Positions 1 through 7,610 of a stretch of 21,588 bases of DNA are shown here, in pieces. Within the stretch, counting starts at the first letter, position 1. Each line of letters opens with the position of its first letter. Under the pieces are notes generated by a model. That model worked only from the letters and a program-made list of their open reading frames with translations. It was not told where the DNA came from and made no database searches. The translations under genes and the position numbers were made by a program. Source of the DNA: a virus (lineage: Duplodnaviria; Heunggongvirae; Uroviricota; Caudoviricetes); the IMG/VR virus record IMGVR_UViG_2563366997_000002, one strand, 5' to 3'.

Positions 1-393
1 TCATATTACTGGATAATCATCATCATCCTTCCCTATCCGATTGATAACGAATGTCACTACCCCGACAACTGTAACATCATCCAGGGCCTCACCTTCCAAC
101 GCTTCACCGTCTCGTGTAATAAATGCCCGGCCCATAATTTTTGCAAAATCAGTGCCGCCGCCGTATTGAATTAAAACGGTATCTCCTTGCTTTGGTTTTA
201 CGAAGCAATCCACTACGGCATAGCCGGTTTCTGTTTGTACTATCCGAGTATTGGGGCCGGTACCGCAGAGTGAATCAACGGTCAGACGCCGTTCAACATA
301 GTCAGCAGCTGGCGACGGAAATCCCACGTTATAGCCCTCCGTTTGGGTTGTATAACTGGAACGTGAGCTCATCGCCTTCCTGCGTTGAGACAT
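1..393 (-). CDS. UmuD/ImpA-like S24-family protein (SOS mutagenesis accessory-like)
   Basis: 130-aa ORF whose stop codon is the first 3 bases of the window. Contains GFPSPAADYVE, matching the UmuD/MucA N-terminal cleavage-site region (E. coli UmuD has CGFPSPAADYVE), and a C-terminal VVGVVTFV-type strand pattern like UmuD. The canonical GDSM serine motif is not evident by eye. Nine nt downstream of the preceding small ORF. Confidence 0.6.
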   Translation of the reverse strand: MSQRRKAMSSRSSYTTQTEGYNVGFPSPAADYVERRLTVDSLCGTGPNTRIVQTETGYAVVDCFVKPKQGDTVLIQYGGGTDFAKIMGRAFITRDGEALEGEALDDVTVVGVVTFVINRIGKDDDDYPVI

Positions 394-402
394 CCCGGAA
401 TG

Positions 403-561
403 TCAGTGCTCTATCCACTGGTTAGCCTGGCGCGGTGACCATATCCAGTTAACTTTTGCGAGTTCCCGGATAAAACCGGACGTTGTCACGGTGCGACGGC
501 CATTAGGCTCAATGACAATTGCCTGACGCCAGGCTATTTCGATATCTGAGTTTCGCGGCAT
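403..561 (-). CDS. small hypothetical protein (52 aa), first gene of an SOS-box operon
   Basis: ORF track gives 403..606, but that start would place the LexA box inside the coding region. The internal ATG at 561..559 has a strong SD (GGAGGTG, 5-nt spacer) and lies just downstream of the box. Gene order recalls impC-impA; that is inference. Confidence 0.4.
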   Translation of the reverse strand: MPRNSDIEIAWRQAIVIEPNGRRTVTTSGFIRELAKVNWIWSPRQANQWIEH

Positions 562-579
562 AACTTCACCTCCCGAAAA

Positions 580-599
580 TACTGTTTTTATATACAGTA
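580..599 (-). promoter_or_regulatory. LexA (SOS) box
   Basis: Minus-strand sequence TACTGTATATAAAAACAGTA is a perfect CTGT-N8-ACAG LexA operator with AT-rich spacer, about 20 bp upstream of the 52-aa ORF start. Confidence 0.7.
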
Positions 600-1103
600 G
601 ATTCATTAAGAGATCTGATCAATACAGGTTCCAGCTATCAATCAGGAACACTGAGGAGGAAACCAGTCACCTTTTAGCCTCTGATATTGGTTTCACTTAG
701 TGATTATGTTGTCTATGTGCCAACTATGAACTATCTTTTCTCAAAACCTGCTACTGCAAAATGGATATAAGATGTCACAGACGGACTTGCTGATTGTTGT
801 TTTTACTCTGGGCATTTTAGCCTTTGGCTATTCCATATGGTTCATTTCGAACAGAATACTTTGCTCTATATTTCATAGACTTACAAAGAATATATGAATT
901 GGGATGGTATAGACCCAAATTCATGGTCATTGCCCCTCGACGTCGGAAGGTACTTACAGATCATCTTCGCTCTTAACCTATCACATCGGCACCTACTCCA
1001 TGATGTAACAGCTCAGACCAGAAATATCTGGAAGCTTTAGGCATATTCTTGGAAGATAGACGAGCGCAAAGACGCACACAGCAATGATGTTATGTAGTAT
1101 TTT

Positions 1104-1135
1104 CCCCTTGAGTGTGCCTGCTCAAGGGGGTTTTT
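1104..1135 (+). terminator. putative Rho-independent terminator
   Basis: ccccttgag / loop tgtgcctg / ctcaagggg gives a 9-bp GC-rich stem, followed by TTTTT. The U-tract is present only in the plus orientation. Confidence 0.45.
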
Positions 1136-1150
1136 ATCGCCGTATTGTAC

Positions 1151-1219
1151 TGGCAAATATTTGTAAATAGTCTTCACCCCCACGCCTGTCACATCGGCCA
1201 CACGCGACTGGACAGGCGG
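1151..1219 (-). pseudogene. remnant of a serine DNA-invertase C-terminal HTH (second copy)
   Basis: In frame immediately after the stop of the 1220..1414 ORF, the minus strand reads PPVQSRVADVTGVGVKTIYKYLP. This is about 80% identical at nucleotide level to the HTH segment at 3160..3215 and has no start codon or catalytic domain. Confidence 0.35.
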
Positions 1220-1419
1220 TTAGTCCGGTATGTTTCTCGCGCTACTACTGCTTACGTTAACGTCTGGTAATGATCTAGCGGCGCGACGTAAAGCGGCGTT
1301 GAAAGCAATTATAGTGACCGGCCGGCATTGGTACTTCACACGGTTAGAATGGCTCTGAAATAAAAAAACATCTTCTGGATAGCGTTCTCTTCTACGAGCA
1401 ATGATCCCCTCCACTGGAG
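1220..1419 (-). pseudogene. tyrosine-recombinase-like gene, 3' part (split by IS4)
   Basis: Joining 2846..3079 to 1220..1419 across one copy of the 11-bp target duplication restores a continuous frame (...KSTPPVE-GIIARRRERYPEDVFLF...). The joined protein has an integrase-core-like segment HTGLSAGRLLSIRYDDIDGD...VKS but no downstream HxxR...Y catalytic region. Confidence 0.5.
1409..1419. repeat. IS4 target-site duplication, left copy (CTCCACTGGAG)
   Basis: Identical 11-mer at 2846..2856 directly flanks the other IS4 end. Confidence 0.85.
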
Positions 1420-2845
1420 TAATGCCGATCAGTTAAGGATCAGTTGACCGATCCAGTGGCTGTGTAAGAATCCGGAAACGCTCACTCGTTTCCGGATTTT
1501 TTTATGCACATTGGACAGGCCCTTGATTTGGTATCCCGTTACGATTCTCTGCGTAACCCACTGACTTCTCTGGGGGATTACCTCGACCCCGAACTCATCT
1601 CTCGTTGCCTTGCCGAATCAGGTACTGTAACGCTACGCAAGCGCCGTCTTCCCCTCGAAATGATGGTCTGGTGTATTGTTGGCATGGCGCTTGAGCGTAA
1701 AGAACCTCTTCACCAGATTGTGAATCGCCTGGACATCATGCTGCCGGGCAATCGCCCCTTCGTTGCCCCCAGTGCCGTTATTCAGGCCCGCCAGCGCCTG
1801 GGAAGTGAGGCTGTCCGCCGCGTGTTCACGAAAACAGCGCAGCTCTGGCATAACGCCACGCCGCATCCGCAATGGTGCGGCCTGACCCTGCTGGCCATCG
1901 ATGGTGTGTTCTGGCGCACACCGGATACACCAGAGAACGATGCAGCCTTCCCCCGCCAGACACATGCCGGGAACCCGGCGCTCTACCCGCAGGTCAAAAT
2001 GGTCTGCCAGATGGAACTGACCAGCCATCTGCTGACGGCTGCAGCCTTCGGCACGATGAAGAACAGCGAAAATGAGCTTGCTGAGCAACTTATAGAACAA
2101 ACCGGCGATAACACTCTGACGTTAATGGACAAAGGTTATTACTCACTGGGACTGTTAAATGCCTGGAGCCTGGCGGGAGAACACCGCCACTGGATGATCC
2201 CTCTCAGAAAGGGAGCGCAATATGAAGAGATCAGAAAACTGGGTAAAGGCGATCATCTGGTGAAGCTGAAAACCAGCCCGCAGGCACGAAAAAAGTGGCC
2301 GGGACTGGGAAATGAGGTGACAGCCCGCCTGCTGACCGTGACGCGCAAAGGAAAAGTCTGCCATCTGCTGACGTCGATGACGGACGCCATGCGCTTCCCC
2401 GGAGGAGAAATGGCGGATCTGTACAGTCATCGCTGGGAAATCGAACTGGGATACAGGGAGATAAAACAGACGATGCAACTGAGCAGGCTGACGCTGAGAA
2501 GTAAAAAGCCGGAGCTTGTGGAGCAAGAGCTGTGGGGTGTCTTACTGGCTTATAATCTGGTGAGATATCAGATGATTAAAATGGCGGAACATCTGAAAGG
2601 TTACTGGCCGAATCAACTGAGTTTCTCAGAATCATGCGGAATGGTGATGAGAATGCTGATGACATTGCAGGGCGCTTCACCGGGACGTATACCGGAGCTG
2701 ATGCACGATCTTGCAAGTATGGGACAACTTGTGAAATTACCGACAAGAAGGGAAAGGGCCTTCCCGAGAGTGGTAAAGGAGAGGCCCTGGAAATACCCCA
2801 CAGCCCCGAAAAAGAGCCAGTCAGTTGCTTAACTGACTGGCATTA
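1420..2845 (+). mobile_element. IS4 insertion sequence, complete copy
   Basis: 1426 bp; imperfect terminal inverted repeats (left TAATGCCGATCAGTTAAGG, right end reverse-complement TAATGCCAGTCAGTTAAGC); single 442-aa transposase ORF; flanked by an 11-bp direct repeat. Confidence 0.95.
1504..2832 (+). CDS. insG: IS4 transposase
   Basis: 442-aa [23 protein letters not shown]..., recognised as the IS4-family transposase; it occupies almost the whole IS. Confidence 0.95.
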
Positions 2846-2856
2846 CTCCACTGGAG
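2846..2856. repeat. IS4 target-site duplication, right copy (CTCCACTGGAG)
   Basis: Exact direct repeat of 1409..1419. Confidence 0.85.
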
Positions 2857-3079
2857 GGGTTGATTTAACACGTAGCTCCTTCAGGTGACCCTGTTTTCGT
2901 ATCAGTATCAAGTCACCATCAATATCATCATATCGAATACTCAGCAGCCTTCCAGCGCTTAAACCCGTGTGAAAAATTAACGCCCACAAGTCAGCCCATG
3001 TATCTGAGATGGAAACAAGATTGCTGTTAATAGTTAAAAATTGCTCAAAACTTATTGTTTTCTTACCGTTCACGAACAA
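2846..3079 (-). pseudogene. tyrosine-recombinase-like gene, 5' part (split by IS4)
   Basis: N-terminal 78 codons (apparent TTG start at 3079); the reading frame runs into the IS4 end where a stop occurs. See 1220..1419. Confidence 0.5.
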
Positions 3080-3156
3080 ACCAAACTGTTTTCAAAGCTG
3101 AATGAATTGATTAAGCCAAACGTAACATATCAGGAAAAGTAGTGAAATCTTTGCCT

Positions 3157-3369
3157 TCAAGTCGCCGGGAGGTACTTGTAGATTGTTTTCACGTCCACGC
3201 CTGTCACATCAGCCACCTGCTGCCGGGTAGCGCCGTTCTCCAGCATTCTGCGGCACCGCTCCACCACTTCTTCAGTCATTATCCGGCGGCGGCCGCCGAC
3301 TCTCTCCTGCTCCATCGCTGCGGACCGACTCGGATGCATTCGGCAAATTCTAGGCCGTGATTTTTCCAA
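3157..3369 (-). pseudogene. serine DNA-invertase (Hin/Gin/Pin/Cin family) C-terminal HTH remnant
   Basis: C-terminal 45 aa, GGRRRIMTEEVVERCRRMLENGATRQQVADVTGVDVKTIYKYLPA, aligns by eye with the Hin C-terminal DNA-binding domain. The N-terminal about 140-aa catalytic domain is absent and the 5' end overlaps the upstream 266-aa gene. Confidence 0.6.
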
Positions 3370-4150
3370 TCCTCTCCATCAGATATGCCAGGATGACATC
3401 CAGTGTGCTGGTCCCATATGCATATTTGCCGGGGAAAACCAAACATTCTGACAAAACGGATGTTAACGGAGACACTGAACCATTGCCTGCTCCGCCAATA
3501 CTCATTTTTTGAGACGGGCTATACGCTGGGATTGTATAGCCCGTCACTTGTCGGCTGGTCACTGCAGACTGATCTGACCGCTGGTATGCAATTGCATAGG
3601 ATCCAGCAGCCTTGTTAGAGCACATAACTACAGCGCAGAATAAAGATTGCCCTATATTGTTAGGAGTAAATGCCAGATCGGCCTCGATCCCTCCATTCAG
3701 AAAAATCGGGAATGAACCTGCTGACGTTGTACGAATGCCGACGCCATGAGGTGTGCTTTCCTGGGTTGCGATAACCGCTCTGTCCTGTGGCGTAGCCGGA
3801 AGCGCCCCACCTGGCAGCTGATAGATGAATGCAAAAGTATTGATGTTTGCGTCCATAACCACCGCCGTATCACCAGCCATGCCGGATGCACCGGAGAAAT
3901 TAAGCCCCTGCAAAACAGAACCATTCAGCTTTGTGGATGGCTCGAGGGTCTCCAGTGACTTGAAAAGTCCGCCATCTAATCGGTTAGAGATAGCTACTAC
4001 TTTTGCACCAGACCCCATTTTTAGAAACTCTGTCTTCACTGGTGTCCATACTGATGGGGATAGTTCTGAGATCGCTTTCTCTGCCGCTGTTTGTGAGTAC
4101 ACAGGGAGTAAGGGGTTATTCAGTCCAGTTAGTGTGTAAATCAGTCTCAT
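3350..4150 (-). CDS. hypothetical protein (266 aa), probably tail-associated
   Basis: Starts 7 nt after the esterase-domain gene stop with a GAGGAT SD; Gly/Ser/Thr/Ala-rich composition. No family recognised. Confidence 0.5.
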   Translation of the reverse strand: MRLIYTLTGLNNPLLPVYSQTAAEKAISELSPSVWTPVKTEFLKMGSGAKVVAISNRLDGGLFKSLETLEPSTKLNGSVLQGLNFSGASGMAGDTAVVMDANINTFAFIYQLPGGALPATPQDRAVIATQESTPHGVGIRTTSAGSFPIFLNGGIEADLAFTPNNIGQSLFCAVVMCSNKAAGSYAIAYQRSDQSAVTSRQVTGYTIPAYSPSQKMSIGGAGNGSVSPLTSVLSECLVFPGKYAYGTSTLDVILAYLMERIGKITA

Positions 4151-4159
4151 TTTTTATCC

Positions 4160-6223
4160 TCAGAAAACGTTAATACGAAAAGCGGGGAGCCAGTCGTAAA
4201 GAGTCACGGATGTGTCATACACCCATATGATTCCAGCGGAAGATCGAACACACCCTCTTGCACCAAGAGTCCGCCCGGAAGGTTTTACAGATGCGCCGCT
4301 CTGAAGTGGGTTTTCTGCTGTCGCATAGGAAACGCGCCCAAAACGTCCAGAGGGGGCGGTCGCCAGGTTAATCAGCACGCCCTTGCCGTCCGAGCTGATC
4401 GCGATGCTCGATATAGCAGGTGGAGCACCAGTCTCATCCGTGTAGCTAAAGCCGTAATTGGCCAGACCGGAGGTGTTGATCGTAGTCGTGTCCAGCACCA
4501 GGTTCGTATACGCTGGGACATTGATTTGTATCTGCGTGGGTGAGTTCCACACGAAACTGGTCGGAACCATCCCTGACCAGCCGCTCGTAAACCACTCCTG
4601 GAGAAGCGCTCTCGCCACAGCTGCTCCGCGCCGGTTCTGGCCCGCACACGTCAAGTGCAGACCGTCTGAAATAAAATCGTACTGGTACAAACTATTGACC
4701 AGCCTGAATTGCTCTTTTCCGTGCAATCGCGTCGACGCCAGTCGCGCGTACTGGCCTGTAAATGCACCATGCCCGTCATTGACATACCCCAGCTGGGTAA
4801 TGGCGATAATCGGCGGTTCGTTTTGACCCGTTCTTGCGATGATGTCGCTGGTGATTTGTCTCTGGTACTGCCTCATCCGTGATTCATACATTCCTTCTCG
4901 TAATCCTGACCAGTCCTCGTCGGACTCTCCCTGCATCCAGTCAACGCAGAGAACAATCGGCAGCCAGCCGCGTGCTTTACAGGCCGTTACGCAGTCTTCG
5001 ATTGAATCGAGCAGATACTGATATACCTGGTTACCCCGTTTCTGGTACTCGTAAGCCTGACCAGACTGCGCACATACGATTGATAGCGTGCGCGGCATGA
5101 TTCCGGTAGCTGCAGCCATATCGCGAATGAAGGTGTTCGCGAGGCCGCTTGCGGCCGTTTCTTTATCTGTCCCACTTACTGCCTCAACCAGTGGCACCAG
5201 AGTAGTGCTGCGTGTCCCTGTACGCCTAACCCCGCCGCTGAGCATGAAAGCGTTATCAGGATATATCGGCGTTGCTGCGACAATGGTTTGATCGGCGTCA
5301 GGACAATATCCTCGAGCGTTGGATTGCCCAGCAGTCACAAAGATAAAACATACAGGCACTGTCTCTGAGTAGGGGTACACAGTAGACCCTGACAAATGAA
5401 GTCCATACTCAGGGAGCTGGTTGGCATCATCGTCGCCACCACCACCGCCATTTCCGTTATTAACAGCTACCAGGCCACCGTCTGAGTAAATCCAGTGCTT
5501 CCCACCAACCGTATAAGCTTCAACGATCTGGTTTGTGGTTGAATCAACCGTCATCCGCCACACTTTTTCACCGCCAATAAACTGCGGTATAGAACCCTCC
5601 CGGCCCAGCGCATAGAGTTCGGATTCTTGTTGGGTTAAAAGTTCGTAATATTTTCCGTCAGGACCGATTTGAATTAATCTGCCGCTTGTATTTAAAAATG
5701 GAGCCACGCGGGAAGTCTCCGGATCATATGCTGCCAGGGTCACGCTGTCTGGCGATACCTGGTATGCGTAGTCGTCACGAACCATCCGCCGTCCGGTTGG
5801 CTGCAGCGTTCCAGCGAGGTTGATATACTCATCGGCCAGAGAGCTTCCGTCCTGACTGCGGACATAGGTTGTTGAACCTGCCGGAATATTCGCAATATCC
5901 GCCTGCGCCGCCGCCAGCGTCATGTACTGCCGGCTGAGAGGGATCAGGTTTTGGCGGGCTTCATCAATAACAGCGTCGGTAGCAGCTGCCATTTTTTTAG
6001 TAGCCCCAATTATCGTATCCTGGGCGTTACCAAAACGATCTATAAAAGTATCGCTTTCGCTGTTCAGGAAATCATCGTACGCCAGGGCGTTATCATTCAG
6101 ATCCTTCATGCTATTTGAAGGTCTTGGATTGCCGGTATTATATCTTTTGTCCATACCTGTTCCTGTCTTCATCTTTTCAATGAAGCAATTAAGATTGACG
6201 CCCCGCCCCTTCAGGGCTAACAT
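4160..6223 (-). CDS. tail-region protein with SGNH/SASA-type esterase domain (putative receptor-modifying tailspike or fibre)
   Basis: Up to 687 aa. Central domain has an SGNH-hydrolase nucleophile block VTAGQSNARGY and a distal DGLH block, as in sialate-O-acetylesterase-like proteins; a fibre-like N-terminal region and a C-terminal beta-rich region flank it. The true start is probably an internal Met (6172, 6154 or 6109), because 6218..6223 overlaps the -10 element of a divergent promoter. Confidence 0.7.
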   Translation of the reverse strand: MLALKGRGVNLNCFIEKMKTGTGMDKRYNTGNPRPSNSMKDLNDNALAYDDFLNSESDTFIDRFGNAQDTIIGATKKMAAATDAVIDEARQNLIPLSRQYMTLAAAQADIANIPAGSTTYVRSQDGSSLADEYINLAGTLQPTGRRMVRDDYAYQVSPDSVTLAAYDPETSRVAPFLNTSGRLIQIGPDGKYYELLTQQESELYALGREGSIPQFIGGEKVWRMTVDSTTNQIVEAYTVGGKHWIYSDGGLVAVNNGNGGGGGDDDANQLPEYGLHLSGSTVYPYSETVPVCFIFVTAGQSNARGYCPDADQTIVAATPIYPDNAFMLSGGVRRTGTRSTTLVPLVEAVSGTDKETAASGLANTFIRDMAAATGIMPRTLSIVCAQSGQAYEYQKRGNQVYQYLLDSIEDCVTACKARGWLPIVLCVDWMQGESDEDWSGLREGMYESRMRQYQRQITSDIIARTGQNEPPIIAITQLGYVNDGHGAFTGQYARLASTRLHGKEQFRLVNSLYQYDFISDGLHLTCAGQNRRGAAVARALLQEWFTSGWSGMVPTSFVWNSPTQIQINVPAYTNLVLDTTTINTSGLANYGFSYTDETGAPPAISSIAISSDGKGVLINLATAPSGRFGRVSYATAENPLQSGASVKPSGRTLGARGCVRSSAGIIWVYDTSVTLYDWLPAFRINVF
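6195..6223 (+). promoter_or_regulatory. putative sigma70 promoter for the HTH/acyltransferase cassette
   Basis: TTGACG, 17-bp spacer, TAACAT, located 9-33 bp upstream of the first plus-strand starts. Confidence 0.4.
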
Positions 6224-6231
6224 CGCCTTAC

Positions 6232-6519
6232 GTGTTTAAACGGTTAAATAAGAGAATGATTTTAATAAATAAATACACCCCTCCAACGCAGGAAGATTTA
6301 GCCAGACTGAAATCCGCACTAAATTACTCCGGAAACCAAATGGCAGGGCTCGCAGGTGTAGCCAGCGATAGCCAATGGCGGAAATACACTGGCGGAGAGA
6401 GCCCCAGGGTAATGTCAAGACACATACTGTTTTATATTGCAGCTCAGCTTGTTCTGTCTGATGAGCAACTTAACAATGTAATAAATAAAATGCGCGATAT
6501 TGGCGCGGAGATAAAATAA
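6232..6519 (+). CDS. small XRE-like HTH protein (putative regulator), coupled to the acyltransferase
   Basis: 95 aa from a GTG start (87 aa from ATG at 6256). The segment LNYSGNQMAGLAGVASDSQWRKYTGGE resembles a Cro/C1-type helix-turn-helix. Its stop overlaps the acyltransferase start (ATAATG). AT-rich. Confidence 0.5.
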   Translation: MFKRLNKRMILINKYTPPTQEDLARLKSALNYSGNQMAGLAGVASDSQWRKYTGGESPRVMSRHILFYIAAQLVLSDEQLNNVINKMRDIGAEIK

Positions 6520-7610
6520 TGCTTGGCCTAATAAGGTTTTTTTTGGCATCGTGCGTCATTGCTTTTCACTTAACGGCTCGCATACCTGCACTTGGCAACT
6601 TTGCAGTGAATTGCTTCTATGTTATTAGTGGTTTTTTAATAACATACATTTTGCATGAAACATACAAGTTCAACTTCTCTATGTTTTGGAAAAATAGAAT
6701 ACTGAGGTTATTCCCGGCATATATATTTTTTCTCGTCATGGGCTTTCTTATTATAAAATTAATTCCATCCGCAAAGGAATTCCACTCAAACTGGACAGGC
6801 AATTTCTTACCTGGAGATTTATTAGGAAACCTCTTAATCTTCCCCTGGGCTTTCCTTTCTGATAATGCTGTAGCAAATCCATTCGGTGCCTTTTCATCCA
6901 TTTATCACTTTGCTATTGATGGTAATAGATTCAGAATAGTCACATCATCATGGTCAGTGGGTGTTGAGATAACATGTTATTTTTTATTGTGGCTTTTCAT
7001 AGCCCGAAATAAATTTACAGCCATTACGTCGATTCTGCTTTCACTGCTTTATCATGCTTACGTATATGTAGTACACCATTCTTTTGATATGGCGTATTTC
7101 CCATTCCTTGCTGCAACACTTCCTTTTAGCATGGGTTCTCTGGGTTATTTTGCCCATAGAAAGTTCAAAGCTATGTATCTTTCTCCACACAAAGCTTTTT
7201 TAATAACATTTATTTGCATCGGGATTTTTATTACCAATTGGCATTTATATACAATTAATCCATTAGGTCAGTACAACATAATACTTTACTACACCAATAA
7301 TGTAATAGCATTGTTTACAACCCTGGTATTATTAAAAATAAAGACAAACATACATCTTGAGAAAATACTCAAGTGGTTTGGTGACCTGGCCTATCCAATT
7401 TTTCTTTGTCAATATTTTGGTGGATTTCTAGCATGGCTTGCTATTGGTGGTGAAAATCGTGGCTTATCCATCTTTTTATTAGGCTACCCAATATCAATTG
7501 CACTTGGGATCGTTTGTGTAATATTAATAGACAAGCCACTAATTAAAATTAGAGCAAAAATAAGGGCGGACGCTCAAAGCAAAAATAATCAGGAAAACTC
7601 TTCAAGGTAA
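6519..7610 (+). CDS. acyltransferase family 3 (OafA/Oac-like) integral membrane O-acyltransferase
   Basis: 363 aa, strongly hydrophobic with multiple predicted TM segments. N-terminal region FHLTARIPALGNFAVNCFYVISGFLITY is typical of AT3 acyltransferases. Markedly AT-rich relative to flanks; opposite strand to the structural genes. Confidence 0.8.
   Translation: MLGLIRFFLASCVIAFHLTARIPALGNFAVNCFYVISGFLITYILHETYKFNFSMFWKNRILRLFPAYIFFLVMGFLIIKLIPSAKEFHSNWTGNFLPGDLLGNLLIFPWAFLSDNAVANPFGAFSSIYHFAIDGNRFRIVTSSWSVGVEITCYFLLWLFIARNKFTAITSILLSLLYHAYVYVVHHSFDMAYFPFLAATLPFSMGSLGYFAHRKFKAMYLSPHKAFLITFICIGIFITNWHLYTINPLGQYNIILYYTNNVIALFTTLVLLKIKTNIHLEKILKWFGDLAYPIFLCQYFGGFLAWLAIGGENRGLSIFLLGYPISIALGIVCVILIDKPLIKIRAKIRADAQSKNNQENSSR

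Follow-up and report, generated by a model that had tools for sequence, protein, structure and literature searches.

We analysed a window of 21,588 nucleotides, i.e. the whole stretch of DNA, and detected at its beginning a minus-strand gene pair encoding the small protein p79 and a UmuD'-like protein. The pair is the terminal cargo of a decayed prophage and belongs to the prophage itself, not to a neighbouring segment, as a preceding sequence-only reading had placed it ("next to" the prophage remnant). The prophage is of the lambdoid/SfV-like type and its copy here is a 19.5-kb remnant. In E. coli HS, where the locus is identical to the window, the UmuD'-like gene and a tRNA-Ser fragment (att site) are separated by about 200 bp without coding sequence, and yodB lies next. 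The HS element consists of late genes and a partial integrase only, the early and immunity regions being missing. An IS4 insertion lies nearby. The following features were annotated, from the promoter downstream:

617-622, minus strand: putative -35 hexamer TTGATC, 17 nt upstream of TACTGT, proposed from its conservation
580-599, minus strand: LexA (SOS) box TACTGTATATAAAAACAGTA, a unique match at a conserved offset; the left half, TACTGT, also serves as putative -10
569-574, minus strand: Shine-Dalgarno GGGAGG of the first gene, read directly and conserved among relatives
403-561, minus strand: truncated p79 gene, 52 codons and TGA, with a 7-bp deletion at the 405/404 junction (alignment to intact alleles)
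329-404, minus strand: 3' half of p79, here out of frame, up to the ancestral stop TAA 329-331 (alignment to intact alleles)
335-340, minus strand: Shine-Dalgarno GGAGGG of the UmuD'-like gene, conserved directly upstream of the start in related loci
1-327, minus strand: UmuD'-like gene, 108 codons, GTG 325-327 to TGA 1-3 (phrog_3469, family starts, AF2 fold, dN/dS 0.11)
292-324, minus strand: N-terminal arm GFPSPAADYVE, matching residues 25-35 of E. coli UmuD exactly
217-219, minus strand: Ala37 codon, equivalent of the UmuD Ser60 nucleophile (hhalign, MAFFT)
4-27, minus strand: acidic C-terminal tail DDDDYPVI, common to P1 HumD, N15 gp26 and HK140 gp28

The GFPSPAADYVE motif had been assigned to a 130-aa protein. 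The ORF is present (in-frame ATG 391-393, 9 nt past the stop of the 52-aa ORF) and includes the motif, but it is over-extended. Its 22-codon upstream extension is interrupted by in-frame stops at 16 of 49 related loci and is not conserved as coding sequence, while nearly all related loci having an intact 5' end share the start (A/G)TG GGN TTY CC with a preceding Shine-Dalgarno, and the 130-aa gene model was dropped on these grounds. The conserved product, 108 aa from GTG 325-327, opens with MGFPSPAADYVE, the exact start of mature UmuD'. The phrog_3469 profile ('UmuD-like protein') matched residues 23-126 of the 130-aa ORF over profile positions 1-104 of 106 (E = 6.9e-49). Members of this UmuD'-like family, 331 clusters at 90% identity, are mostly 105-108 aa long, begin MGF or MGFPSP, are encoded on more than 548 viral contigs and are frequent in Klebsiella, Enterobacter, Escherichia and related prophages and phage-plasmids. 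They are annotated only as 'hypothetical', 'UmuD-like' or 'S24/S26 peptidase', and literature searches found no study of, or experiment on, any member. The gene is under purifying selection in phages (dN/dS 0.11 for the whole gene, 0.05 for the arm). This is a widespread, unstudied family and a sister of the P1 HumD family.

The first gene had been described as a 52-aa ORF with a strong Shine-Dalgarno. Both exist (ATG 559-561 to TGA 403-405; GGGAGG 569-574), but the gene boundary was wrong: alignment to intact 79-aa alleles (SCU-308, MIN9) demonstrated that the ORF is a frameshift allele of a conserved phage gene, p79, in which a 7-bp deletion made the TGA, and this indel led us to drop the 52-aa gene model. 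Because of the deletion, the phrog_3893 (p79) profile match is limited to positions 1-52 of 79; PGAP labels the ORF 'frameshifted'. The most conserved part of p79 (TTFRDVSTQEGE...NPNGG) is missing from the window copy. In intact loci the start of the next gene lies 1-2 nt after the p79 stop, and the two genes are translationally coupled. p79 is under purifying selection in phages and has a winged-helix fold; it had no match against Pfam and PDB sequences, and the BFVD fold search matched only its own homologue. The annotation 'DNA polymerase V' given to the partner gene is misleading.

The proposal of an SOS box heading a LexA-controlled two-gene operon was borne out. CTGT-N8-ACAG at 582-597 is the sole match within the window, this loose pattern being modestly unlikely by chance (0.17 expected; at least one match in 14 of 100 shuffles). 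The 20-mer TACTGTATATAAAAACAGTA at 580-599 is near-consensus, fitting the palindromic consensus at 18 of 20 positions; the strict form is unique in the window and none of 100 shuffles matched it with 2 mismatches permitted. A perfect CTGT-N8-ACAG was detected at a fixed offset in 70 of 80 related viral loci, at about -278 with the intervening small gene and about -38 where the UmuD'-like gene stands alone, and P1 humD has an annotated LexA site at the same position. The -35 TTGATC or a close variant (TTGAnn, TTGCAT) stands at the same place in 77 of the 86 LexA boxes of related loci. A generic sigma-70 scan did not flag the promoter; we call it because TTGATC-N17-TACTGT is kept across related loci despite unrelated spacer sequences. 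The gene pair is probably under LexA control in vivo. No RNA element was found by the Rfam search of window positions 1-3400 (E up to 0.1), and an RNA element in the 5' region was dropped; a defence system was likewise dropped after a PADLOC search without a match.

A LexA box followed by a small gene and a UmuD-like gene is superficially like impC-impA, and the sequence-only reading had drawn this analogy and expected a UmuC-like gene off-window, i.e. a standard umuDC/impCAB-type mutagenesis cassette with its polymerase gene just outside. In the HS locus, however, the non-coding DNA leads only to the att fragment and yodB, tblastn with UmuC detected no match in the window or in 85 related loci, and phage-plasmid copies of the module have no adjacent Y-family polymerase gene either. 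BLASTP of p79 and HK140 gp27 against ImpC and DinI (E up to 10) gave no match. A genuine impCAB operon (L093) encodes a DinI-like ImpC, a Y-family polymerase and an ImpA that carries a pro-peptide as well as GESM and VKR, while in the window protein the pro-peptide and the catalytic dyad are both missing. Neither an intact Ser/Lys dyad nor an ImpC homologue upstream, named beforehand as marks of an ordinary cassette, was found. Given the identical HS locus, the UmuC search and the comparison with a real impCAB operon, we dropped this interpretation, which is almost certainly wrong.

The UmuD-type precursor with a pro-peptide and a Cys/Ala-Gly site is absent, the conserved start codon standing directly before the Gly. 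It had been correctly noticed that the protein appears to lack the catalytic serine motif. The 130-aa ORF has no G-D-S-M block; Ala37 pairs with UmuD Ser60, UmuD residues 61-72 (12 residues) are deleted right after it (hhalign, 96% probability; MAFFT), and Ala62 of the 108-aa protein aligns to UmuD Lys97, so that the dyad is absent. The nucleophile column of 36 diverse family sequences holds A22/V5/Y3/H2/L2/D1 and never Ser. The suggestion of a non-cleaving protein or a variant site missed the main point, namely that there is nothing to cleave because the protein begins at the post-cleavage Gly.

In the same 36 sequences, G and F of the arm never vary, and S, P, A, D, Y and E hardly do. In the tail, Pro holds its column in 30 of the 36 and stands at position -3 or -2 in 27 of 35 representative tails, and the acidic DDxP tail was not found in UmuD, ImpA and SamA. 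Family tails such as ...SDDDIPIM, ...DDDDYPVI and ...DDSPF can be compared with the SSB tip DDDIPF. A family-specific and strongly conserved acidic motif, IT-x-DGEA[IL]EGEALDD, stands in place of the UmuD loop. The AF2 model (pLDDT 77; below 50 in the tail region) has the LexA/UmuD' S24 beta-fold. Foldseek gave a probability of 1.00 to LexA C-terminal domains and UmuD' (TM 0.5-0.6), with matches to UmuD' in 1AY9 (TM 0.59), UmuD in 8GMT and LexA C-terminal domains. UmuD and UmuD' were the sole real sequence matches in the PDB, and the Pfam search (E up to 10) gave no S24 match for the UmuD'-like protein.

Since this fold is the same as that of proteins binding the RecA* groove, the protein might be a RecA* filament binder, a non-cleavable pseudo-substrate that sits in the groove like DinI and tunes the cleavage of LexA, UmuD or CI. 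It is acidic, and in mEp390 and HK140 a dinI-like gene adjoins across the shared LexA box. The UmuD determinants are nevertheless replaced: the RecA*-contact residues (Y52, L54, F94, D91, E93) are not conserved in the family, the hydrophobic pocket Y52/L54/F94 having become I/V/L, E, L/T/V and the acidic pair D91/E93 variable C/G, R/E/G, and F18 falls in the pro-peptide that is missing here. The groove decoy was dropped on these contact residues, and we consider it highly improbable.

p79 has 79 aa and the next gene starts from the cleavage-site Gly, which echoes the LexA N-terminal domain (to 84) followed by Gly85. Together with the translational coupling, this could suggest a two-piece regulator, either a repressor of the LexA/CI type divided at the cleavage site or an SOS-induced antirepressor; Gifsy phages and phage 186 have known antirepressors under LexA control (PMC3121763). 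However, no sequence similarity links p79 with the N-terminal domain of LexA (probability 0.07%), and counting its residues gives no net charge. The top 120 of 947 p79 matches are standalone proteins of ~79 aa throughout, without a single fusion; the split LexA-like protein was dropped on the missing p79-LexA signal and the lack of fusions among these matches. Two p79 subtypes are exchanged ahead of near-identical UmuD'-like genes (loci L008 and L009), and p79 is missing from P1, N15 and some family members. The antirepressor for the own prophage was dropped as well, the module being kept in a remnant without an immunity region and distributed as a mosaic across unrelated phage backbones and phage-plasmids; moreover, the Gifsy antirepressor modules adjoin replication genes, not the att end. 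We regard a two-piece regulator as very unlikely.

For the window genome, the 7-bp deletion in p79, the remnant state, in which the integrase is partial and the early region missing, and the IS4 insertion nearby could mean that the surviving ORF is an inert relic, merely not yet degraded. This has a slim chance: nothing is broken in the 108-aa ORF, its Shine-Dalgarno, the promoter or the LexA box, all of which recur unchanged in at least 16 complete E. coli genomes, and family members elsewhere work without p79. It also concerns the window copy alone, the family being under purifying selection. Given the broken p79 and the remnant prophage, the window module may be drifting.

Pol V is normally restrained by slow RecA*-dependent UmuD cleavage. 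We propose, with a probability of roughly 0.5, that the 108-aa protein, expressed upon SOS induction from a terminal LexA-repressed prophage cargo operon, serves as a UmuD' surrogate or modulator that targets host UmuC/UmuD. DNA damage would inactivate LexA and open the promoter whose putative -10 lies in the left half of the SOS box. In intact phages, one transcript would carry the two translationally coupled genes, encoding the 79-aa winged-helix p79 and the 108-aa UmuD' mimic; in the window copy p79 is a frameshift pseudogene, and the UmuD'-like gene with its own ribosome-binding site is intact. Made from the equivalent of UmuD Gly25, the protein would be born as activated UmuD' and would not need RecA*-stimulated self-cleavage. 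The Ser-Lys site probably decayed (Ser to Ala and the 12-residue deletion) because a pre-cleaved protein no longer needed cleavage. Retained from UmuD' are the N-terminal arm, the S24 core and the dimer strand at the C-terminus, to which the acidic DDxPVI tail of HumD-type proteins is added. By analogy with P1 HumD, the mimic may dimerise and engage the host Pol V pathway via UmuC, UmuD or both, and translesion synthesis would then be controlled at once, without any need for cleavage, while SOS and prophage induction are under way. We infer the dimerisation, the host partner and the sign of the effect on mutagenesis, positive or negative. A productive mutasome is not guaranteed, because the RecA*-contact residues are not conserved and Pol V activation requires RecA.

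A host partner is available, as umuDC was found in 5,423 of 5,426 complete E. coli genomes. To our knowledge, the UmuD'-UmuC interface has no structural definition. UmuD' binds the C-tail of UmuC (PMC6511836), UmuD and UmuD' readily exchange subunits into heterodimers, and mutagenesis is delayed by UmuD2C (PMC5342242). A mimic that heterodimerises with host UmuD/UmuD', or blocks the UmuC C-tail without polymerase activation, would be a dominant-negative antagonist; Pol V mutagenesis would then be damped, or the UmuD2C checkpoint cancelled so that the induced phage replicates. Such a role is consistent with the conservation of the arm and of the dimer strand at the C-terminus amid an otherwise diverged surface, the RecA*-contact residues included, and with the conserved acidic motif in place of the UmuD loop. 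On the other hand, the record for HumD, the nearest relative that has been characterised, speaks of complementing UmuD' rather than of inhibition, and heterodimer formation is itself hypothetical; we hold antagonism to be unlikely. Quite unlikely, too, is an SOS-induced phage decoy, not a mutagenesis helper, that combines UmuD' arms on a dead S24 scaffold with an SSB-like C-terminal tip. It would dock on the UmuC tail, UmuD and SSB-tip-binding proteins, rewiring translesion synthesis or fork processing for the induced phage, with the winged-helix p79 as a co-factor; in a radical version, the pair would be a LexA-like regulator split at the cleavage site.

A prophage gene providing a ready-made uncleavable UmuD' look-alike upon LexA release could shift the timing and amount of lysogen mutation under DNA-damaging antibiotics, or alternatively shut the Pol V pathway down.

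Among the known systems, impCAB, mucAB and samAB have the SOS box in common with the window operon, and impCAB also has a small gene followed by a UmuD-like gene. Unlike p79, the first gene product ImpC is DinI-like; ImpA and SamA carry the pro-peptide, G[ED]SM and VKR, all absent from the window protein, and in these operons the UmuD-like gene is always followed by a gene for a Y-family polymerase, whereas the window pair is not. The Gifsy/186 antirepressors (GfoA, GftA, Tum) are similar in being encoded by small prophage operons with host LexA as the only known regulator (PMC3121763). They differ as unrelated small proteins encoded beside replication genes and targeting a cognate repressor, a non-cleavable one carried on the same element; the HS remnant has no cognate repressor.

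The likeness to E. coli UmuD/UmuD' comprises the arm (11 of 11 residues identical), the S24 fold, the C-terminal strand V-x-G-V-V and LexA regulation. The window protein differs in lacking the dyad, a cis umuC and the 24-residue pro-peptide, and in having the extra acidic tail. In UmuD, the Lon and ClpX degradation signals lie in the N-terminal arm of the full-length protein, the Lon signal being lost upon cleavage to UmuD' (PMC5342242); without the pro-peptide, the window protein has no cleavage step, nor the degradation and clamp-binding signals located in that segment.

The closest known system is P1 HumD, with N15 gp26, phiKO2 gp23 and HK140 gp28 (NCBIfam NF051876, phrog_811). These are orphan UmuD'-sized phage proteins that start at the equivalent of UmuD Gly25 with the arm GFPSPA-x-DYVE, have a LexA box directly upstream and no adjacent umuC, and end in an acidic DDxP[VI][ILM] tail. 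In lambdoid phages their genes, too, lie between those for the tail fibre and attP, and in HK140 a p79-type gene stands ahead of gp28, at the same position beside attP. Of the compared proteins of the HumD and window families, HumD alone has experimental support; the P1 GenBank record notes that it 'functionally complements E. coli UmuD''. The HumD equivalog model of NCBIfam gave the window protein 33.7 bits against a cut-off of 120, over profile positions 1-27 (the arm) only, and the window protein core is far more diverged from UmuD' than the HumD core. HumD-type proteins are ~129 aa long, ~40% identical to UmuD', whereas the window protein has 108 aa and lacks UmuD residues 61-72. They have also lost neither Lys97 nor the RecA*-contact residues, and the Ser persists in P1 HumD, while the window protein has Ala at both dyad columns. 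The HumD-type Ser is eroding (ADSH, then GATH). Pre-cleaved HumD-type proteins with an eroding Ser, and the window family with neither the Ser nor the following hairpin, form a natural experiment, a series that shows the fate of an autoprotease once its cleavage is needless.

The second gene of the pair on the minus strand of the window encodes a 108-aa protein that belongs to a large and uncharacterised family of phage UmuD' mimics, pre-cleaved and protease-dead, which is sister to P1 HumD. The sequence features reported for window 1-606 (minus strand) by the sequence-only reading were confirmed, and its view of an SOS-controlled, serine-less UmuD relative stands; its standard-cassette and variant-site views do not. 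The features are as follows.

622-617, minus strand: TTGATC hexamer, 17 nt from the TACTGT of the LexA box
599-580, minus strand: LexA box, TACTGTATATAAAAACAGTA
574-569, minus strand: GGGAGG before the first ORF
561-559 (ATG) to 405-403 (TGA), minus strand: 52-codon ORF, truncated p79
393-391 (ATG) to 3-1 (TGA), minus strand: 130-codon ORF, opening nine bases past the first stop and containing GFPSPAADYVE
327-325, minus strand: GTG, conserved start of the UmuD'-like gene, with GGAGGG ahead of it
1420-2845: complete IS4 copy (1,426 bp) with a 442-aa transposase (1504-2832) and terminal inverted repeats
1409-1419 and 2846-2856: 11-bp IS4 target duplication, CTCCACTGGAG
E. coli HS loci L001 11669-11805 (partial tRNA-Ser copy) and L089 7071-7160 (intact serU): bounds of the prophage remnant, about 19.5 kb apart

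The 130-codon ORF is present with its GFPSPAADYVE motif, but the length of 130 aa proposed for the protein is not its true one. Nearly all 5'-intact copies in 80 related viral loci start with (A/G)TG GGN TTY CC (M-G-F-P), and stops interrupt the 22-codon upstream extension in 16 of 49 loci, so the true product is 108 aa. Database members of the family are mostly 105-108 aa long with the N-terminus MGFPSP, and phiES15 gp52 and mEp390 gp26 are annotated with the MGFP-type start. Residues G2-E12 are identical to UmuD G25-E35 (11/11). Translation thus begins at the post-cleavage glycine, so there is nothing left to cleave and the protease is not maintained by selection; the idea of a variant active site falls, and a cleavage-defective UmuD was rejected, since the protein starts pre-cleaved.

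The 108-aa protein has no Pfam match, and the NCBIfam HumD and UmuD models cover only its first 27-50 residues, far under their cut-offs. PHROGs assigns it to phrog_3469, 'UmuD-like protein' (E = 7e-49), UmuD and UmuD' were the only meaningful matches in a PDB sequence search, and a profile of 33 family members aligned with E. coli UmuD over its residues 25-99 (96% probability). A MAFFT alignment including UmuD, ImpA, SamA, HumD and N15 gp26 agrees in register with the profile alignment. Ser60 of UmuD faces Ala37, Lys97 faces Ala62, Lys98 faces Lys63, and UmuD residues 61-72 (MIDGGISDGDLL) are missing. Across 36 sequences (the window protein and 35 full-length representatives of 50%-identity clusters) the N-terminal arm is nearly invariant, the nucleophile column holds A, V, Y, H, L or D, Ser there was found in 0/36, and the G-x-S-[ML] block in none, bearing out the missing serine motif. 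In the AF2 model (pLDDT 77) the protein adopts the LexA/UmuD' S24 fold with a flexible arm and C-terminal tail; the model matches 1AY9 (TM 0.59), 8GMT (0.56-0.60) and LexA C-terminal domains. Purifying selection acts on the gene (dN/dS 0.11 overall, 0.05 in the arm).

Two database proteins are composite. P0256 (141 aa) joins a UmuD-like pro-peptide (FIRPAELREIIALTLFSDSMQC) to a phage-family body at the shared GF(P/T)SPAADYVE motif, which suggests that umuD recombined with the phage gene, or else a chimera made in assembly. P0284 (187 aa), a p79-to-UmuD'-like read-through fusion, looks like a frameshift product.

The CTGT-N8-ACAG pattern behind the proposed SOS box is single in the window (0.17 expected; one or more matches in 14 of 100 shuffles) and alone is only mildly improbable; the full 20-mer with its A/T spacer was never matched in shuffles, with two mismatches permitted. 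Of 80 related viral loci, 70 have a perfect CTGT-N8-ACAG upstream, at about -278 with the 79-codon gene between and about -38 where the UmuD'-like gene is alone. We detected TTGATC or a close variant (TTGAnn or TTGCAT) exactly 17 nt before TACTGT in 77 of 86 boxes compared, a position conserved across at least four unrelated spacer sequences. This conserved -35-like hexamer therefore indicates a promoter that uses the left box half as its putative -10, and LexA binding would thus occlude it. HK140 gp27-gp28 and N15 gp26 are preceded by the same arrangement (the N15 -35 being TTGCAT); P1 humD has a LexA site annotated at the equivalent position, but without such a hexamer. A generic sigma-70 scan does not pick up the window promoter. 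LexA control of the gene pair is strongly supported by this comparison across loci.

The 52-aa ORF has its ATG, GGGAGG and stop; as a gene model it does not hold, being a 79-codon gene cut by a 7-bp deletion. In strains SCU-308 and MIN9 the locus is the same but for 7 additional bases, and its first ORF has 79 codons (MPRNSDIEIAW...TFQLYNPNGGL), stopping at a TAA one base ahead of the GTG. In the window the deletion makes the TGA at 405-403 and costs p79 its most conserved half, TTFRDVSTQEGE...NPNGG; the phrog_3893 (PHROGs) match covers only positions 1-52 of 79, and PGAP labels the locus 'frameshifted'. The two p79 subtypes, phrog_3893 (NPNGG type) and the HK140 gp27/mEp390 type (NMGRV), are each exactly 79 aa and clearly homologous. 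A p79 profile search returned 947 clusters; no match was found in Pfam, PDB or PADLOC, and no relation to ImpC or DinI. The confident AF2 model (pLDDT 88; order alpha-beta-alpha-alpha-beta-beta) predicts a winged helix, and dN/dS of 0.18 indicates purifying selection. That p79 and the UmuD'-like protein form a regulator pair is unlikely, because p79 has no detected sequence-level relation to the LexA N-terminal domain. P1, N15 and some members of the window protein's family have no p79, and its subtypes are swapped ahead of nearly identical UmuD'-like genes; p79 is therefore dispensable for the architecture.

PGAP and UniRef call the 79-aa protein 'DNA polymerase V' (proteins P0121-P0238; HS L001 12329-12561). 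We rejected this name given the lack of a Pfam match or UmuC/UmuD similarity and the predicted winged-helix fold; the label was apparently transferred from the adjacent gene.

Phage mEp390 (NC_019721, L004) has an unannotated 79-aa p79-type ORF at 3774-4013 on the plus strand (MPRQLDIRAAF...NMGRVF), directly upstream of gp26 with the start overlap TGATG, in place of which the record annotates the 42-aa gp25 on the opposite strand. A single LexA box (3731-3750) serves this pair and the divergent dinI-like gp24. A DinI-like gene diverges in this way over a shared SOS box in HK140 (L088 1907-2887) as in mEp390 (L004 3421-4333), so both phages have a small 'SOS-modulator island' beside attP.

Window 1-760 is 100% identical in E. 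coli HS and about 15 further complete genomes (at least 16 in all), and the allele is carried by 57 of 5,426 complete E. coli genomes. The identical HS locus has no polymerase gene beyond the window start: where an off-window UmuC-like gene had been suggested, about 200 bp of non-coding DNA, a 'tRNA-OTHER' fragment and yodB follow the 130-codon ORF. This fragment is the 3' part of tRNA-Ser (GGGGGTTCAAATCCCCC...CTCTCCGCCA), on which ARAGORN makes no gene call, and is therefore a duplicated att core. The gene pair is thus the last cargo inside the prophage remnant, with the att core about 200 bp beyond, and not 'next to' the element. All that the remnant retains is late genes, from terminase to tail and baseplate, along with a partial integrase and a putative O-antigen acyltransferase and esterase; immunity, replication and lysis regions are all absent in HS. 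The IS4 copy is missing from the otherwise matching HS locus, where its insertion would break a 141-aa hypothetical gene. The window copy may be partly decayed (p79 a pseudogene, the prophage defective); its promoter, LexA box, ribosome-binding site and 108-aa ORF are intact.

Two ORFs lie at 4160-7610, between the operon and the baseplate genes. One, of 687 aa, is annotated in HS as sialate O-acetylesterase and is probably a tail spike or fibre; the other, divergent and of 363 aa, has the HS product name acyltransferase. Both may be conversion genes that modify the O antigen. The family gene of phage-plasmids is found just upstream of the small terminase gene, not beside attP, and in the Klebsiella phage-plasmid NZ_CP097708 (L090 3111-5330) it adjoins a group II intron reverse transcriptase.

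On LexA inactivation, the 108-aa protein would accumulate at once in an 'activated' form; we infer that it would dimerise via the conserved C-terminal strand and display UmuD' arms to host partners. Of 5,426 E. coli genomes, 5,423 encode UmuC. The UmuC C-tail is the primary UmuD'-binding site (PMC6511836), and UmuD and UmuD' readily exchange subunits (PMC5342242). The N-terminal segment of full-length UmuD, with its Lon degradation signal and ClpX recognition sequence (PMC5342242), is absent from the 108-aa protein. On the analogy of HumD, the most likely outcome, with a probability of about 0.5, would be cleavage-independent Pol V-like activity or UmuC stabilisation. Compared with UmuD, the window protein has lost the Lys, the hairpin past the nucleophile, and Y52, L54, F94, D91 and E93, which bind RecA* (PMC9926225). 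The diverged core and lost RecA contacts favour the main rival, an antagonist role, which we consider a distinctly weaker possibility; the loss of the same residues makes a RecA* binder improbable, even more so than the regulator pair.

The pre-cleaved phage UmuD'-like proteins (window 4-27, minus strand; P1 HumD, N15 gp26, HK140 gp28, mEp390) finish with an acidic tail that has Pro at -3 or -2 and a hydrophobic last residue (DDDDYPVI, SGEFDDCPVI, NDDCPAI, SDDDIPIM, DDSPF), which is absent from cleavable UmuD, ImpA and SamA in the aligned sequences. The tail is predicted to be disordered and resembles the SSB C-terminal tip DDDIPF (motif cited in PMC5872125). The family is already catalogued as 'UmuD-like'; we found no description in the literature of the dyad loss, conserved SSB-like tail or winged-helix partner, which provide testable hypotheses on prophage manipulation of SOS mutagenesis.

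Comparison of umuDC/impCAB/samAB (values from loci L093, impCAB of an IncK2/Z plasmid, and L092, samAB), the P1 HumD type and the window family, in that order
LexA box: present in all three
N-terminal pro-peptide: in the operons only
Ser60 position: Ser (G[ED]SM); Ser in P1 (ADSH), Thr in N15 gp26 and HK140 gp28 (GATH); non-Ser throughout (Ala, Val or other)
Lys97 position: Lys; Lys (as IKR in P1, N15 and HK140); Ala, Gly or Val
UmuD residues 61-72: deleted in the window family only
Neighbouring Y-family polymerase: yes; no; no
DDxP[VI][ILM] acidic tail: no; yes; yes

The window module has only the LexA box in common with Pol V-type operons, and four defining features fail; the suggested impC-impA likeness goes no further, p79 being unrelated to ImpC or DinI. 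A standard mutagenesis cassette was rejected, as pro-peptide, Ser/Lys and adjoining polymerase are all lacking. Among known kinds the nearest is P1 HumD, together with N15 gp26, phiKO2 and HK140 gp28, which share with the window module the LexA box, the absence of umuC, the tail-fibre to attP slot, the acidic tail and a UmuD alignment beginning only at residue 25. The nucleophile block, GDSM in UmuD, is already eroding in the HumD type while its Lys remains, which is an intermediate stage to the complete loss in the window family. According to its P1 GenBank record note, HumD functionally complements UmuD'. Since it falls short of the HumD equivalog model (NCBIfam) and has also lost the Lys, the hairpin and the RecA* residues, the window protein is not a HumD family member but a variant of the HumD kind.
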